This document shows, in pieces, positions 753-55,454 of a DNA stretch of 64,000 nucleotides (positions are counted from its first letter, which is position 1; the number at the start of each line of letters is the position of its first letter). The notes beneath the pieces were generated by a model. The model saw only the letters and a list, made by a program, of their open reading frames with translations, made no database searches and was not told the origin of the DNA. The stretch spans positions 3,498 through 67,497 of the forward strand of contig CALWPD010000003.1 of NCBI GenBank assembly GCA_944383335.1, read 5' to 3'. This DNA comes from an uncultured Clostridia bacterium (lineage in GTDB: Bacteria; Bacillota; Clostridia; Christensenellales; UBA1242). The translations under genes and the position numbers were made by a program.

Positions 753-1099
753 GTATAAGTATTTTGGAAAAATAATGTTTTATTTGCCTACAGTCTGGCA
801 ACTTGTATTTTTAGTTATTTTTATACTTCCTGAATTTTGATTCTAATAATTTAAAATCAACAACACAATCCAAATATTTACTATGTTCAGAAACTTTGTA
901 CTTTCCTATTTTTTGATTTGTATATTATGTTTGCTTTTCTTACTATTTCTTTTCTATTTTAGTAATAAAGTCTAATTCCTTAATTATTAAGGTTCTGTAA
1001 TTTAAATCTTTTTCTTCGTTTAGATTAATTTTTGTTAATGTTTTTTTAAATCATGTCCTATTGGGACTTGTAAGAAACCCATAATGCTCGACAAAAATC

Positions 1100-1227
1100 A
1101 ATCTAGCGTGTCTGCCCATCGTCAAAACCTGCGCCAACGGCCTAAAATTGCCAAGGCAATTTGTGAGGCTTTTTGCTTGGTTTTGCCTCTCCCCAAAAAG
1201 TTTCCATAGGTACTTTATTGGGGGCCC
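1100..1227 (-). repeat. About 130-nt structured repeat element, copy 1 (inverted relative to copy at 50302-50431)
   Basis: The reverse complement aligns by eye with 50302-50431: about 38/42 identical over the first block, looser after. Both carry hairpins CCAA(T)AAAGT...ACTTTTTGG and AAATTGCC/GGCAATTT. It lies just 3' of tRNA-Leu on the same strand. Confidence 0.6.
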
Positions 1228-1258
1228 CGTGAAACGGCAGCCACATTATTCTTATTAT

Positions 1259-1343
1259 TGGTGCTGATGAGGAGATTTGAACTCCTACGCCTTTTGGGCA
1301 CTAGAACCTGAATCTAGCGTGTCTGCCGTTTCACCACATCAGC
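1259..1343 (-). tRNA. tRNA-Leu (anticodon CAG), encoded CCA
   Basis: Reverse complement is GCTGATGTGGTGAAACGGCAGACACGCTAGATTCAGGTTCTAGTGCCCAAAAGGCGTAGGAGTTCAAATCTCCTCATCAGCACCA. It has a 7-bp acceptor stem, anticodon stem CTAGA/TCTAG with loop TTCAGGT, a long variable arm and a GTTCAAATC T-loop. Confidence 0.92.
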
Positions 1344-1352
1344 ATACATTTT

Positions 1353-1381
1353 AGTATACATCAAGGTAGTAATATTTTCAA
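1353..1381 (-). promoter_or_regulatory. Sigma-A-type promoter for tRNA-Leu(CAG)
   Basis: On the minus strand, TTGAAA-17 nt-TATACT ends about 10 nt before the mature tRNA 5' end. Confidence 0.55.
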
Positions 1382-3598: not shown

Positions 3599-4385
3599 TT
3601 TTTTGACTAAACTAAATGATGATGATATTGTGAAATACTTAGAAACCAATCAAAACCTATTAGATTTAATTTGTTGTCCTGTATTCACAACAGAATTGAA
3701 AAATCCATTAAAATTCATAAAAAATGCGAAAAAAACAATAAAAAATTATAATTTTTGCAAAATTTCTATTGAAGATATCGGTTTTTTAAAACAAAAAAAT
3801 TTTTTTGAGATACTTAAAATCAAGCCTATTTACATTAGTTTAACTTGGAACTACAAAAATAAATTTGCTGGTGGGGCTTATAGTGATGGAAGATTGACCG
3901 AATATGGTAAAGTTATGATCAGAAAGTGTGAAGAAAATAATATTTTGATTGATTGTGCGCATTTAAACTATCGTTCTTTTTCTGATATTTTGGATATTTC
4001 AAAACGGCCAGTAATATGTTCACACACGGGTTTTTGTGATATTGTTTGGGATAAACGAAATTTAACAAGACATCAAATAAAGGATTTAATTGATAACAAA
4101 GGTATAATTGGTTTGTATTTTGTTGGAAAGTATATATCAAAAGAAAGGATAAATGCTTATGATATAATAAAAAATATTGATTATTTTGTGCAAAATTTTG
4201 GAGTTGATAATTTATGCTTTGGCACCGATTTTTTTGGAACAGATGATTTACCTAAAAAAATCACTCAGTATAAAGATATGGAATTAATCAAAAGATTATT
4301 GGTTAAATGTGGATATACACACTTGGATATCAATAAAATATTTAAAACTAACGCTGAAAGGTTTTTTCAAAAATATTCATATTGA
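3579..4385 (+). CDS. M19 membrane-dipeptidase family protein
   Basis: IDLHNDFL at the N-terminus, then CAHLNYRSF, ICSHTG and FGTDFFG. The start overlaps the upstream peptidase gene by 20 nt, with GAGGGA as RBS. Confidence 0.72.
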   Translation: MIDLHNDFLTKLNDDDIVKYLETNQNLLDLICCPVFTTELKNPLKFIKNAKKTIKNYNFCKISIEDIGFLKQKNFFEILKIKPIYISLTWNYKNKFAGGAYSDGRLTEYGKVMIRKCEENNILIDCAHLNYRSFSDILDISKRPVICSHTGFCDIVWDKRNLTRHQIKDLIDNKGIIGLYFVGKYISKERINAYDIIKNIDYFVQNFGVDNLCFGTDFFGTDDLPKKITQYKDMELIKRLLVKCGYTHLDINKIFKTNAERFFQKYSY

Positions 4386-4430: not shown

Positions 4431-4979
4431 ATGAATATATTAGATTTGTTTAGGTTTGTTAGAAAACCAAAAGATCAAACTGAGAGAACTCACTTGACTA
4501 AAAACTTGTATATTGCAAAACTTTATAGTGCAACTCACTTTGGTGGAGATTACGACTATGATACGCCTATGTCTGCTAGTTTAACGTCTGATCACTATGT
4601 TTTGTTGGTCGAATCAAATGGAAAATATTATGTTATTCCAGAGACAGATAACCAAAAAGCAATAGAAGTATCAGATATCAATCAAGTTCAAAGAGAACAT
4701 GAATTGTTAATTCAGCCTGATTCAAACAAGCGATTTAAGCCATTTACATACTACGCACCATCATCAGAGTATGGATTTGTAACTTCATATGAATTAAGAA
4801 AAATTGCAAAATTTATTCATTACTATTTCATCAAAGGTGATGATCATGCTCACAGAAGAGATCTTGACGTTTATTACAAATTTCTCAGAGACATTGAACT
4901 TACTGCAGAAGAAAAAGAAAGGCTTTTATCTTTAGAAGATTTTGCAAAAACACAAACTAAAGAAGATTTGAATAGATAA
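4431..4979 (+). CDS. Hypothetical protein, tandem paralog 1 (182 aa)
   Basis: Shares long blocks with the next gene: KNLYIAK.YSA, GKYY..P, KAIEV.DI, QP, YAPS.E.G.VTS.ELRK.A.FI..YF.KG..HAHRRDLDVYY. I recognise no family. Confidence 0.75.
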   Translation: MNILDLFRFVRKPKDQTERTHLTKNLYIAKLYSATHFGGDYDYDTPMSASLTSDHYVLLVESNGKYYVIPETDNQKAIEVSDINQVQREHELLIQPDSNKRFKPFTYYAPSSEYGFVTSYELRKIAKFIHYYFIKGDDHAHRRDLDVYYKFLRDIELTAEEKERLLSLEDFAKTQTKEDLNR

Positions 4980-5084: not shown

Positions 5085-5609
5085 ATGAGTATTTTATTTA
5101 AAGTGCCAAACATCTCAGTAGATGAAGATCCAACGGAAAAAACATTGCAGGCAAAAAATCTTTATATTGCTAAGGTTTATTCTGCAAATAATGGTAATGA
5201 CCGTACCGATTTGGCGTCCAAACACTATGCATTAGTTGTAGGCATTGGTGGAAAATATTATATTGTTCCAACAAATAATTATAACAAAGCAATAGAAGTC
5301 GAAGACATTGATGAAGTTAAGGATTCTCATGGGCTTATGGTTCAGCCTAGTTTGGAAAATAGTTTCAAATCATTTTCTCACTATGCACCATCTGCAGAAG
5401 TTGGAGTTGTTACATCTGATGAATTAAGAAAACTGGCACAGTTCATTTATCTTTATTTTGTCAAAGGTGAGCATGCTCATAGACGAGATCTTGATGTTTA
5501 TTATAGATATCTCAAGGGCGCAGCGCTTTCTAATGATGATAAAAAGATACTTTTATCGCTTAAAAATTCAGCAAATAGCAAATATGTTTCTGATGAATTA
5601 AGTAGATAA
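5085..5609 (+). CDS. Hypothetical protein, tandem paralog 2 (174 aa)
   Basis: By eye, about half of the residues are identical to the 4431-4979 product across the full length. Confidence 0.75.
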   Translation: MSILFKVPNISVDEDPTEKTLQAKNLYIAKVYSANNGNDRTDLASKHYALVVGIGGKYYIVPTNNYNKAIEVEDIDEVKDSHGLMVQPSLENSFKSFSHYAPSAEVGVVTSDELRKLAQFIYLYFVKGEHAHRRDLDVYYRYLKGAALSNDDKKILLSLKNSANSKYVSDELSR

Positions 5610-39989: not shown

Positions 39990-40064
39990 TGGGGTATCGC
40001 CAAGCGGTAAGGCATTGGACTCTGACTCCAACATCCGTAGGTTCGAATCCTACTACCCCAGCCA
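39990..40064 (+). tRNA. tRNA-Gln (anticodon CTG)
   Basis: TGGGGTA/TACCCCA acceptor stem, anticodon stem TTGGA/TCCAA with loop CTCTGAC, GTTCGAATC T-loop, encoded CCA. Confidence 0.9.
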
Positions 40065-40151
40065 AATTTTGGGTAAAAATGAAATTTTGTAAAATTTGTC
40101 AAAAAAGTTCTTTACTTTTTTATGGAAGTTTTATATAATAGACAAAGTTAT

Positions 40152-40226
40152 TGGGGTGTAGCCAAGTGGTAAGGCACGAGACTTTGACTCTCGCATGCGT
40201 AGGTTCAAATCCTGCCACCCCAGCCA
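40152..40226 (+). tRNA. tRNA-Gln (anticodon TTG)
   Basis: TGGGGTG/CACCCCA acceptor stem, anticodon stem CGAGA/TCTCG with loop CTTTGAC, GTTCAAATC T-loop, encoded CCA. Confidence 0.9.
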
Positions 40227-40231
40227 AATAT

Positions 40232-40307
40232 GGTTCACTAGCTCAGTCGGTAGAGCACTTGACTTTTAATCAAGGGGTCCCGGGTTCGAATCCCGGGTGA
40301 GCCACCA
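40232..40307 (+). tRNA. tRNA-Lys (anticodon TTT)
   Basis: AGCTCAGTCGGTAGAGC D-arm, anticodon stem CTTGA/TCAAG with loop CTTTTAA, GGTTCGAATCC T-arm, encoded CCA. Confidence 0.92.
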
Positions 40308-40335
40308 TCTAAACTCCTTTATTTATAAGTCTTTC

Positions 40336-40363
40336 AAGGCGATTTGTCGCTTTGATTTTTTTT
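40336..40363 (+). terminator. Terminator of the Gln-Gln-Lys tRNA operon
   Basis: Stem AAGGCGA/TCGCTTT, loop TTTG, then T8. Confidence 0.7.
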
Positions 40364-40386
40364 GTTAAAATTTTGCTATTTTTAAA

Positions 40387-40424
40387 AAAACTGTGTCAAA
40401 AACTGTGTCAATTTTTTAAACTGT
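40387..40424 (+). repeat. Short direct repeats AAAACTGTGTCA x2 plus a partial third (AAACTGT)
   Basis: Exact 12-nt tandem copies at 40387-40398 and 40399-40410, with AAACTGT again at 40418-40424. They lie between two convergent tRNA terminators. Confidence 0.8.
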
Positions 40425-40472
40425 TATTATGTAATAATAATCGCCATATAATCTTAATAGTTTTTCTTATAC

Positions 40473-40500
40473 AAAAAAAACCTCGCCACAAGGCTTGGTT
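40473..40500 (-). terminator. Terminator after tRNA-Leu(TAG)
   Basis: Minus strand AACCAAGCC-TTGT-GGCGAGGTT imperfect stem, followed by T8. Confidence 0.6.
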
Positions 40501-40501
40501 T

Positions 40502-40584
40502 TGGTGCGGATGAAAGGACTTGAACCTTCACGGTTGCCCACAGGATCCTAAGTCCTGCGCGTCTGCCAATTTCGCCACATCCGC
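40502..40584 (-). tRNA. tRNA-Leu (anticodon TAG), encoded CCA
   Basis: Reverse complement is GCGGATGTGGCGAAATTGGCAGACGCGCAGGACTTAGGATCCTGTGGGCAACCGTGAAGGTTCAAGTCCTTTCATCCGCACCA, with a long variable arm. Its own TTGACA-17-TAACAT promoter lies upstream. Confidence 0.92.
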
Positions 40585-49147: not shown

Positions 49148-49311
49148 GACATTCTTTATGTCATCCCAAGCCATGCCTTAATGCGTCGGCTTTTTATGTC
49201 ATTCTGAGACGGCCGTCAACACATCGACCTTTTTCGTCATTCTGAGCGAAGCGAAGAATCTCAACTTTATACTGTCATTCCGAGTAGTGCGGCATGTCAG
49301 AGCAACCGGTT
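49148..49311 (+). repeat. Phased array of four 38-nt units, each opening with GTCAT(T/C)C(T/C)(G/A)AG
   Basis: Unit starts at 49160, 49198, 49236 and 49274, exactly 38 nt apart, with a partial GACATTC at 49148. Unit 3 is the canonical hairpin GTCATTCTGAGCGAAGCGAAGAATCTC. Units 1 and 2 end in T5. Confidence 0.8.
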
Positions 49312-50143: not shown

Positions 50144-50300
50144 GAGATTTTTCACTGACGCCACTTTTCGTCTTCTTGAGCGTTTCAGTCTGTCATTTTG
50201 AGTTTGAATTTCGTCATTTTGAGTGTGTATTCCGTCATTCTGGGCGTTTTAGCCTGTCATTCTGAGCCCGCTCCAACGCGTCGACCCACGAAGAATCTCA
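50144..50300 (+). repeat. Tandem 21-22-nt array of the GTCATTYTGAG family (five units) plus one inverted partial copy
   Basis: Unit starts at 50170, 50192, 50213, 50234 and 50256 (spacing 22, 21, 21, 22). An inverted partial copy GAGATTTTTCACTGAC lies at 50144-50159. The last unit is a long form, GTCATTCTGAG-22 nt-CGAAGAATCTC. Confidence 0.8.
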
Positions 50301-50301
50301 T

Positions 50302-50431
50302 GGGCACCAAAAAGTACCTACGGAAACTTTTTGGCGAGAGGAGAAACGGAGCGTAAAGTAAAAATTTGCGAATAGCAAATTGAAGCCCTAAGCGACAGTT
50401 TTGACGAGAGACGGAGCCGCAGAGCTCACGA
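50302..50431 (+). repeat. About 130-nt structured repeat element, copy 2
   Basis: Aligns with the reverse complement of 1100-1227. Hairpins CCAAAAAGT/ACTTTTTGG and AATTTGC/GCAAATT. Followed by another CGAAGAATCT half-site (50429-50438). Confidence 0.6.
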
Positions 50432-50437
50432 AGAATC

Positions 50438-51355
50438 TTATTTTTTTAATCGCAAATCGCTATTCTCAACATTGATAACAAGTGAAGATGCTTGGCTTAA
50501 AAGTCTTGAAAACACTCTGTCGCCATAAAAGTCTTGAATTTGCTGTAAGGATAGGTTAGTAGATATGACCGTTTTTTTATTGTTTCTCATTCTCTCAGAA
50601 AGCACATTATATATCCCTTCAATCGTAACATTTTTTAATATAGGTTCTGTTCCAAGGTCATCAATAAAAAGGTAATCGGGTTCCATTAACATATGCAAAT
50701 ATTGACCCTTAGTTTCATCAAAAGTTGTGTGATATTTTAATAAATTTTGATTAAGCTCAAAAGCGGAAGTAAAGTATACAAGTACTTCTTTATTAATAAG
50801 GTCATTTGCCATACATTCCATTACATATGTTTTGCCAGCGCCGGTTTTACCAATCAAAAGCACATTATTATAGGGGTTTTTCTTATCACACCAGTTTTTT
50901 AAGATTTCATATAATTTTTGTGTTTTTTTGGGGTCATCAAAGATTTTAAAATCGCAATTTTCGAAACTTTTTTTGTCCTTGCTAAGTCCGCTTTTTTCAA
51001 ATAAAATTAAATTAATTTCGCGTTTTAGACAAGAACATATCTCACCATTAACATAGCCTGTATCATTACATTTTGCACAAGTGTAGTGTGGTGAAATGGC
51101 TTTTTTGTCAATTTCTAATTTTTTCAAAATGTCATCTTGAATTTTAAGAAGATTTGTTAGGTCATATTTTGGCTTTTCCCCATAAACTTCAGATTTAGCA
51201 TTTTGAATTTCTGCTTGTTTAATTTCTTTAAAATTCTTTTTAAATTCTTCATTTGCCATCGCTTTTTCAAAAAAACTGTATGCCAGTGCTTCAGCATTTA
51301 CACGCCTTGCTTTGATTTTGTTTAGCGCTGATTCAATTATTTGTTTGTTTAACAT
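50438..51355 (-). CDS. dnaI: Helicase loader DnaI/DnaC-like AAA+ protein
   Basis: N-terminal Cys cluster CAKCNDTGYVNGEICSC, Walker A GKTGAGKTY and Walker B LFIDDLGTE. Confidence 0.8.
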   Translation of the reverse strand: MLNKQIIESALNKIKARRVNAEALAYSFFEKAMANEEFKKNFKEIKQAEIQNAKSEVYGEKPKYDLTNLLKIQDDILKKLEIDKKAISPHYTCAKCNDTGYVNGEICSCLKREINLILFEKSGLSKDKKSFENCDFKIFDDPKKTQKLYEILKNWCDKKNPYNNVLLIGKTGAGKTYVMECMANDLINKEVLVYFTSAFELNQNLLKYHTTFDETKGQYLHMLMEPDYLFIDDLGTEPILKNVTIEGIYNVLSERMRNNKKTVISTNLSLQQIQDFYGDRVFSRLLSQASSLVINVENSDLRLKK

Positions 51356-55357: not shown

Positions 55358-55454
55358 GCCATAATTGTACACCATCTGGTACTTTTTAACAACTGTTTTG
55401 CTTGACAAACTTTTTTTAGTATAATACTATGTCTTTACATTTAGGAGCATAGTT

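Follow-up and report, generated by a model that had tools for sequence, protein, structure and literature searches.

The window analysed here, a stretch of 64 kb of DNA, begins within spo0A, which is recognised by Pfam through its Spo0A_C and receiver domains. An intact tRNA-Leu(CAG) gene on the minus strand, hereafter tRNA#1, and a lineage-specific lipoprotein gene, for which an exact-sequence look-up returns no record, lie next to it. Between spo0A and the two genes sits a block of repeated sequence, and the features of the locus are the following.

1086-1099, minus strand: U-rich tail past the 3' arm, GAUUUUUGUCGAGC (from the sequence)
1100-1116, minus strand: 3' arm GGCAGACACGCTAGATT, sense tRNA nt 17-33 (homologous position in L036, L004 and L006)
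1119-1228, minus strand: module A core, 110 nt, GGGG...GACGA (covariance model 105.5 bits, E=7e-25; alignments, covariation and fold)
1229-1244, minus strand: 5' arm GTGGCTGCCGTTTCAC, antisense of tRNA nt 10-25 with one mismatch (inverted repeat, folds)
1245-1258, minus strand: A/T spacer of 14 nt from the tRNA 3' end to the antisense arm (from the sequence)
1259-1343, minus strand: tRNA-Leu(CAG), intact gene, tRNA#1 (ARAGORN; Rfam tRNA model, 53.6 bits)
1311-1327, minus strand: copy 1 of the 17-nt direct repeat, within tRNA-Leu(CAG) nt 17-33
1353-1381, minus strand: promoter-like site for tRNA-Leu(CAG), TTGAAA, 17 nt, TATACT (consensus scan 10/12, a consensus match only)
1440-2327: lineage-specific lipoprotein gene, beyond tRNA-Leu(CAG) in window coordinates

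The 17-nt direct repeat AATCTAGCGTGTCTGCC occurs exactly at 1100-1116 and at 1311-1327, has no further site in the window even at two mismatches, and found no match of any kind in 100 shuffles (0/100). Read on the tRNA strand, it corresponds to tRNA nt 17-33, from the D-loop to the 5' strand of the anticodon stem. The inverted repeat GTGAAACGGCAG lies at 1229-1240 (+) and 1323-1334 (-), once per strand; shuffled sequences gave a mean of 0.1 matches to it and in no case two. Additionally, the inverted repeat reaches 16 nt at 94% identity (1229-1244 versus 1319-1334), and this 16-mer is the antisense of tRNA nt 10-25. Both the 17-nt direct and the 12-nt inverted repeat reported in the initial annotation are thus real, at exactly these positions and far beyond what shuffling yields, and its assignment of the 17-mer to the D-loop to anticodon-stem part of the tRNA is confirmed.

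On the tRNA strand, the order of elements is tRNA, 14 nt of A/T, GTGGCTGCCGTTTCAC, a 110-nt block, TG, GGCAGACACGCTAGATT and a U-rich stretch. The 110-nt block, which we term module A, is conserved and non-coding and is bracketed by both tRNA-Leu repeats. Specifically, the antisense arm abuts the 5' end of module A (GGGG, 1225-1228), and the 3' arm begins 2 nt past its sharply conserved 3' end (GACGA, 1119-1123). The duplicate, described in the initial annotation as lying inside the repeat element, therefore starts 2 nt outside the conserved 3' end, with the inverted copy abutting the 5' end, and window 1100-1244 (minus strand) is one module A copy plus two target-derived flanks. Nor does the suggestion that the element itself is tRNA-derived hold, as Rfam and ARAGORN match only the true tRNA, and the core has no tRNA similarity, only its flanks being copied. 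A terminator scan makes no call at the U-rich tail (1086-1099), where read-through transcription from the tRNA possibly ends.

Module A belongs to a repeat family. A pattern scan on the shared hairpin loop identifies 16 true copies in four genome bins, namely the uncultured Clostridia BRZ_KC__bin26, E30__bin7 and E21__bin298 and an uncultured Christensenella sp., and a scan of a metagenome collection adds one more true copy (L027), its nine remaining matches being due to chance. The covariance model (R1) recovers 21 module A copies at 68-143 bits. Rfam 15 contains no family that matches the window module even at E up to 10, and none that matches in 17 related loci; the pattern scan of IMG/VR found nothing, BLAST against phage and plasmid collections gave no match, and literature searches by REP-unit sequence, miniature integrative elements and folded attP returned nothing relevant. 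We find this undescribed repeat family in no organisms other than a few uncultured Clostridia of gut type. No reading frame is conserved in module A; the frame varies among copies, and we dropped a hidden peptide gene on this ground. A hammerhead-like CUGANGA box at the 3' end of the module was likewise dropped, several copies carrying UUUGACGA or UUCGACGA there.

The consensus fold of module A is a three-way junction. In particular, P2 consists of CCCCAAAAAGU, the loop ACCUAYGGAA and ACUUUUUGGGG, and is followed by GAGAGG, a long irregular hairpin (P3) and GUUYYGACGA. In the window, the P2 hairpin lies at approximately 1191-1223 with the invariant loop GUACCUAYGGAAAC, GAGAGG follows, and the long P3 hairpin lies at approximately 1123-1185. 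Standard pairs fill 99.3% of pair cells and six pairs are altered on both sides, in an alignment that was fitted to the covariance model and hence leans towards structure; these pairing values are matched by none of 500 shuffles, and structures slid by 1-3 columns fall to 28-57% paired. An independent MAFFT/RNAalifold alignment contains four compensatory pairs.

The second copy of module A in the window lies downstream of dnaI and convergent to it, and its features are the following.

50256-50299, plus strand: 5' flank of copy 2, a long REP-like unit GTCATTCTGAGC..CACGAAGAATCTC
50300-50407, plus strand: module A core, copy 2 (covariance model 109.4 bits; alignment)
50408-50438, plus strand: 3' flank of copy 2, with GGAGCCGCAGAGCTC pairing with the 5' flank

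Pfam identifies the genes next to copy 2 as replication genes of the dnaB/dnaI type; we considered an IS21 element here, since IstB_IS21 tops the Pfam matches of the dnaI-like protein, and rejected it on the identity of these neighbours. The 5' flank of copy 2 holds the 5' strand of its closing helix, GAGCCCGCTCC, and the direct repeat CACGAAGAATCT (50287-50298); a second CACGAAGAATCT, with a U-run behind it, occupies 50427-50438. What had been taken for a looser version of the tRNA-like block in this copy (GACGGAGCCGCAGAGCTC, 50410-50427) is its own unrelated 3' flank, and the flanks of the roughly 20 other copies differ again.

A second family, module B, is homologous to module A and is picked up by the same covariance model; it is flanked by 27-nt REP-like hairpin units GTCATTCTGAGCGAAGCGAAGAATCTC. 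In six copies, module A sits inverted inside the first hairpin (P2) of module B, so that the closing stem of module A is there module B's own stem (TCACGGC/GCCGTGA), and L014 carries a triple compensatory change in this B-derived stem. Further modules, C and D, occur beside A and B. Together they form intergenic arrays of combined and nested modules with a short hairpin unit between them. A further polymorphism is found in L018, where REP units, module B and module A occupy the space between a cytidine-deaminase-family gene and tyrS, which in the window is a 46-nt spacer. Most copies of module A have no tRNA context, and most lie inside other repeats. Module A has no conserved terminal inverted repeats, its arms being tRNA-derived, module-B-derived or REP-derived by locus. 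The 3' end of module A has a sharp boundary that in every case abuts the target, and the flanking duplications vary in length (12, 17 as a remnant, 34, ~65, 61-66 and ~145 nt), the long ones including unrelated sequence of 34 nt and ~65 nt in L016 and L017 and of ~145 nt in L010.

Orthologous spo0A / tRNA-Leu(CAG) / lipoprotein loci were reached through homologues of the lipoprotein. Three of these loci (L030, L004 and L036) carry module A, and those of at least five relatives (L029, L031, L033, L034 and L039) lack it; this presence/absence pattern, obtained by the comparison that the initial annotation had proposed, bears out the reading of the repeats as insertion scars at a tRNA gene. Among the empty sites, module C follows the tRNA in L029, an inverted module B directly follows it in L031 and L033, and no modules are found in L034 and L039. 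Among the occupied sites, L030 retains the antisense arm and the 5' two-thirds of module A, fused to module C and ending before the 3' arm, and L004 carries both arms, its contig stopping in the 3' arm after a sense copy of at least 19 nt. L036 is arranged as tRNA, terminator-like hairpin, TACCGTTTCACCACA, module A, the tRNA again from nt 12, and an inverted module B. Its antisense arm TACCGTTTCACCACA is the antisense of tRNA nt 6-20, with 13 nt perfect, and its second tRNA copy is perfect over 61 nt and then runs into a decayed acceptor end (14 nt at 93%), the T-stem being broken. The inverted module B trails the displaced copy in L036 as it trails the real tRNA in the empty L031 and L033, and in L004, L036 and L030 the sequence from tRNA to arm is homologous to the first ~36 nt of that inverted module B. 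We had considered that the insertion might have generated the terminator ahead of the arm as a fold-back palindrome; the alignment shows it to be the duplicated start of module B with its own hairpin. The 14-nt spacer of the window lacks this terminator-like duplicated flank. Because the Leu-CAG copies of the window, L030, L004 and L036 share their junction sequences, they probably go back to one ancestral event.

L006 lies at another isoacceptor gene, tRNA-Leu(AAG), and is arranged as tRNA, spacer, CGCGTCTGCCATT, module A, and the tRNA from nt 20 to CCA followed by AAAA. Its antisense arm CGCGTCTGCCATT is the antisense of nt 14-26, 13 nt perfect, and its direct repeat of the tRNA is perfect over 66 nt, through CCA. 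Empty tRNA-Leu(AAG) sites are found in L133-L135, whose tRNA is identical, and in L136-L143. The flank past the displaced copy in L006 matches the downstream flank in L133-L135, and the L006 spacer resembles the start of the module C that trails the tRNA in L133. L006 is a second, independent tRNA-linked insertion. The arms at each locus match their own isoacceptor (CAG in the window, L004 and L036; AAG in L006), and the tRNA-linked copies share a common geometry of tRNA, flank, antisense D-arm, module A and sense tRNA copy. In both events, the antisense arm spans the left breakpoint, with 4-7 target nt missing downstream. These loci resolve the puzzle raised in the initial annotation, that the 5' and not the 3' part of the tRNA is duplicated: in L036 and L006 the second copy extends from the D-arm in the direction of the 3' end (61 and 66 nt perfect), and the window keeps only the first 17 nt of such a copy.

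All loci compared are short-read metagenome assemblies, and several copies of the module A and B repeats sit at contig ends. That every dataset is a metagenome assembly is the one point in favour of chance similarity or an assembly artefact, an account that we regard as practically negligible, given that no shuffle reproduces the 17-mer pair and that assemblies produced independently by different projects (the window, L030, L004, L036 and L006) agree in their geometry.

All four two-armed tRNA-linked copies fold as P1, P2 and P3, with z-scores of -5.7, -4.4, -2.6 and -0.7. In the predicted structures, 7-10 nt at the start of the displaced tRNA copy pair with the antisense arm, which closes the P2/P3 three-way junction; in the window, the predicted closing helix P1 has its 5' strand at 1236-1244 and its 3' strand at 1108-1116. 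A closing helix as a family-wide trait was dropped, since in a crude duplex-energy test cognate flanks pair no better than shuffled or non-cognate ones, and L016, L017, L002 and L007 are without one. Approximately four G-U pairs occur on the module strand, and approximately three A-C mismatches there are G-U on the opposite strand; these counts do not settle the strand of folding, nor RNA versus single-stranded DNA.

The searches for an enzyme bear directly on how the fragments arose. The 54 largest ORFs of the window (64 kb) include no integrase, transposase, reverse transcriptase or other recombinase and are housekeeping genes, with many aminoacyl-tRNA synthetases, clpP/clpX, trigger factor and obg. 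No ORF or recombinase lies between the repeats of the window, and the stretch between tRNA#1 and the arm, ~30-65 nt at both independent loci, contains no ORF. Around the copies of module A, no neighbour protein recurs, an all-against-all BLAST giving only orthologous pairs. An integrase pairing with this site, which the initial annotation proposed to look for, was accordingly found neither in the 64-kb window nor around the copies, and a reading as classical site-specific integration is not supported, given the lack of a recombinase in either place and the duplication of ~36 nt of host flank. A classical scar, in which a tyrosine integrase crossed over in the tRNA-Leu D-arm and module A with its antisense arm is the remnant of attP next to attR, the rest having been deleted, would have the appearance of textbook attL/attR, with a direct repeat that starts in the D-arm and heads for the tRNA 3' end, which in L006 it passes, and with the insert lying between the intact gene upstream and the displaced one downstream. 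It would also suit the finding that two related isoacceptors were struck at one sub-location, integrase subfamilies reportedly targeting the same tRNA sub-location (Williams 2002). We nevertheless hold this account to be unlikely: at both loci the space between tRNA#1 and the arm measures only ~30-65 nt and holds no ORF, the duplicated flank is host-specific and foreign to an element-borne attP, no integrase recurs by any copy, most copies lie within other repeats and not at tRNAs, and the module is unmatched in phage and plasmid collections and in IMG/VR.

Because the duplication enters host-specific flank and the 64 kb hold no integrase, transposase or reverse transcriptase, an in-place duplicative insertion is indicated and not a classical scar. 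Likewise, as the spacers match host flanks, the duplicated segment spans the D-arm to well past the gene and is host-made, not delivered by attP. We consider it fairly probable that the tRNA fragments are the flanks of a duplicative in-place insertion of a structured repeat, copied with the help of a trans function or by template switching. Comparison with the relatives shows the insertion point to be the D-arm of the tRNA-Leu(CAG) gene and the target duplication to amount to ~110 bp, from tRNA nt 12 to ~36 nt beyond the gene, which is why an intact tRNA gene survives upstream. This upstream gene was completed by the duplication, and the displaced tRNA copy after the 3' end of module A (GACGA) is the end of the original gene. 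Directly 5' of module A lies a 13-16-nt inverted copy of the target that covers the left breakpoint. Decay in the window lineage would later have removed all but 17 nt at the start of the displaced copy, together with the duplicated flank that separated the tRNA from the arm, the 17-mer then being the stump of the displaced copy and the 12-16-mer the antisense arm, which may pair with each other to close the module.

In the proposed duplicative insertion, module A would be non-autonomous and copied by a function acting in trans or by replication template switching at hairpin-rich repeats. We favour, as a guess, a copy-in by replication or repair in which synthesis switches from one nearby template to another; this would explain both the long, variable target duplication and the inverted templated piece. 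Since the arm holds 4-7 nt that the downstream copy lacks, the intact target would have been its template, or selection would have kept the arm in step with that target. Over 61-66 nt the displaced tRNA copy shows 100% identity, and the duplicated flank next to it is strongly diverged; this would call either for gene conversion by the functional tRNA gene or for selection acting on the displaced copy. We rejected an origin by retro-copying of mature tRNA, as the duplication passes the CCA end into the flank. A D-arm break in tRNA-Leu on two occasions looks more site-specific than random template switching predicts. Only two independent tRNA events are known, and generalising from two is risky; with this number, a preference for the tRNA-Leu D-arm is inseparable from chance combined with selection for a working tRNA.

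Selection on the arms would be expected if the antisense arm, module A and the tRNA-like tail together formed a functional tRNA-linked RNA, either a small RNA or a cis-regulator. The core is kept with compensatory changes, the arms are identical or nearly identical to the tRNA where the neighbouring protein is only 46-71% identical, and the window lacks a terminator on the way from tRNA to module and has a U-run after the 3' arm. Possible roles of such an RNA include pairing with, or mimicking, the tRNA-Leu D-arm, and ending or processing the tRNA transcript. In L004, L036, L030 and L006, however, tRNA and module are set apart by a terminator-like hairpin and its U-run, and past its first ~17 nt the tRNA copy is unconserved, being deleted in the window and broken in the T-stem in L036. 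Close relatives dispense with the element entirely, and most copies stand outside a tRNA context, all of which makes a functional RNA of this kind improbable.

The position of the antisense arm also admits a guide-directed element, in which the arm is a programmable guide across the insertion point and a trans-acting enzyme inserts the module. Candidate routes are SINE-like target-primed reverse transcription of an RNA, or folding of single-stranded DNA in the manner of CTXphi attP or integron attC. The arm crosses the left breakpoint in both events with the 4-7 nt absent downstream, the 3' end of the module is sharp and invariably joined to the target, the target duplications are long and variable in length, and the stem in which the arm pairs with the downstream copy recreates the duplex of the target. 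Set against this, neither the 64 kb nor the neighbours of the copies yielded a reverse transcriptase, HUH enzyme or recombinase, L016 and L017 have long duplications and no recognisable arm, the closing stem of nested copies is simply the host repeat's own hairpin, and the independent events number only two. To our knowledge, no such guide-directed system has been described in bacteria. We therefore give little credence to module A as the cis element of a protein-less guide-directed insertion, in which a polymerase or recombinase supplied in trans copies it in and spares the tRNA.

Taken together, these findings define an undescribed family of intergenic repeats with conserved structure, made up of module A and the related module B; modules C and D occur alongside, and the family is confined to a small clade of uncultured Clostridia. 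They caution that a partial tRNA duplication can be read as an integrase scar and yet be something else, here with an insert of 150-250 bp, no protein, a break in the D-arm and a duplication that arose in place. The repeats break assemblies and vary between species at orthologous sites, and are thus useful markers of recent genome change. The signature itself, a long and variable target duplication with a short inverted copy of the breakpoint, is unusual and occurs twice at tRNA-Leu. Were it enzyme-directed, it would be a new way of moving DNA in bacteria, and were the guide-directed reading true, a bacterial counterpart of SINE-type or bridge-RNA-type targeting.

The tRNA duplications known as attL/attR resemble the present loci in the intact gene upstream, the far-side repeat from the break towards the 3' end and the existence of empty sites, and here too a direct repeat of the tRNA flanks the insert with the intact gene on one side. 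Unlike in these systems, the insert with module A measures ~150-250 bp, no integrase lies inside it or at its border, and an inverted copy of the target is present. Additionally, the break falls in the D-arm and not in the anticodon loop, the T-loop or the 3' end, and the identity block is not confined to the tRNA as for an element-borne attP, ~36 nt of host flank being duplicated with it.

Bacterial small repeats and MITEs, such as bcr1 of the Bacillus cereus group, BOX, RUP, ERIC and Correia elements, are 100-150 nt long, structured and lineage-restricted. Module A is small, non-coding, multi-copy and insertion-polymorphic, and shares with bcr1, BOX, RUP, ERIC and Correia its intergenic position, its structure and its presence/absence polymorphism. 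It differs from MITEs in having neither terminal inverted repeats nor a short fixed target duplication, its flanks being locus-specific and its duplications 12-145 bp.

The CTXphi attP(+) and integron attC sites are folded single-stranded recombination sites, in which inverted segments ~100 nt apart can form a stem, as they can around module A, where the stem is chromosomal target sequence. This likeness is purely structural: no Xer/IntI-type features are identified, the target is a tRNA, and the loop and not the stem is conserved. In IS110 and IS1111, a structured non-coding RNA, the bridge RNA or seekRNA, lies beside a DEDD recombinase. Module A is comparable in being a structured module with one antisense and one sense segment to the same target. 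In contrast to IS110/IS1111, no DEDD recombinase lies beside the module A copies or in the 64 kb, and the two segments are outer flanks rather than internal loops, with an overlap of 7-10 nt. Module A also has a long target duplication, which IS110 elements do not make.

Neisserial intergenic mosaic elements (NIMEs) and REP/BIME clusters are mosaic repeat modules that are combined, nested and placed at the ends of highly expressed genes. Although the modules themselves differ, and the tRNA-splitting duplication is without a described counterpart there, modules A, B, C and D are likewise combined, nested and split by a REP-like unit (GTCATTCTGAGCGAAGCGAAGAATCTC), in arrays at the ends of highly expressed genes.

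Module B is a second repeat family, homologous to the 110-nt structured non-coding repeat module A, and the two families share a common plan of a hairpin, a GAGA(A)AGG motif and a long hairpin. In the related genomes, module B was located at the following positions.

L002 848-983, module B
L016 2805-2938, module B
L007 2108-2241, module B
L018 6828-6962, module B
L031 2655-2812, module B
L036 700-965, module B

Some copies of module B are solitary, some are arranged in tandem (twice in L036), and some lie immediately against the CCA end of tRNA-Leu. Covariation between loci is seen at the foot of the long hairpin of module B, with the pairs GGGCA/TGCCC, AGAGA/TCTCT and GGAGA/TCTCC.

Beyond these families, two further multi-copy modules, C and D, form long hairpins with the shared ends GAAATACTTYGTTTCTG ... 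CGAGCCTYGTCT followed by a U-run, and they look like elaborate terminators.

L006 1760-2060, module C/D
L006 7290-7760, module C/D
L029 2690-2800, module C/D
L133, downstream of the tRNA, module C/D

In L002 and L007, module A is nested inside module C, where it occupies two different positions.

At the tRNA-Leu loci, the displaced, partial tRNA copies (L036 965-1039 and L006 1694-1759) share 100% identity with the live gene across 61-66 nt, whereas the adjoining co-duplicated flank has diverged to roughly 65-80%. This contrast suggests that the live tRNA has converted the displaced copies, or that the fragment is under selection. In a single relative, an rve-type (DDE) transposase gene (L030 6115-6882) is present approximately 3 kb away from the tRNA-Leu locus, and no link between this gene and module A was seen.

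Aminoacyl-tRNA synthetase genes are unusually abundant in the window (5751-42517). By their Pfam domains they comprise ProRS, AlaRS, MetRS and ArgRS types, a 1036-aa class I synthetase of the I/L/M/V type, and two enzymes of the W/Y type. Genes for tRNA modification are also present in the window, a cluster of tRNAs lies at 39990-40584, and a short tandem repeat was found in the spacer of convergent tRNA genes.

Window 40388-40420, short tandem repeat AAAAACTGTGTCA AAAACTGTGTCA, between tRNA-Lys and tRNA-Leu(TAG)

Additionally, two adjacent paralogous genes of unknown function (window 4431-4979 and 5085-5609), for which a Pfam search returned no match, contain 70-130-nt repeats with 72-73% identity and 630-nt spacing.

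The spacer between a cytidine-deaminase-family gene and tyrS spans 46 nt in the window (55409-55454), whereas the orthologous spacer in L018 spans approximately 480 nt and is filled with REP units together with module B and a nested copy of module A (3725-4250). Modules A and B are flanked by a 27-nt hairpin unit, GTCATTCTGAGCGNAGCGAAGAATC(TC), which is distributed as follows.

Window 49198-49262, 27-nt unit
Window 50150-50299, 27-nt unit
L018 3780-3830, 27-nt unit
L018 4103-4133, 27-nt unit
IMG/VR loci L041-L120, 27-nt unit
Window 50150-50270, head-to-tail run of five 21-23-nt units, immediately upstream of the second copy of module A

Every one of these 21-23-nt units begins with GTCATTYTGAG/GGG, which corresponds to the 5' half of the 27-nt unit. 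In IMG/VR, 92 stretches carrying the 27-nt unit were found on contigs of very different base composition, and these copies often adjoin variant or inverted copies. The 27-nt unit is REP-like and very widespread.
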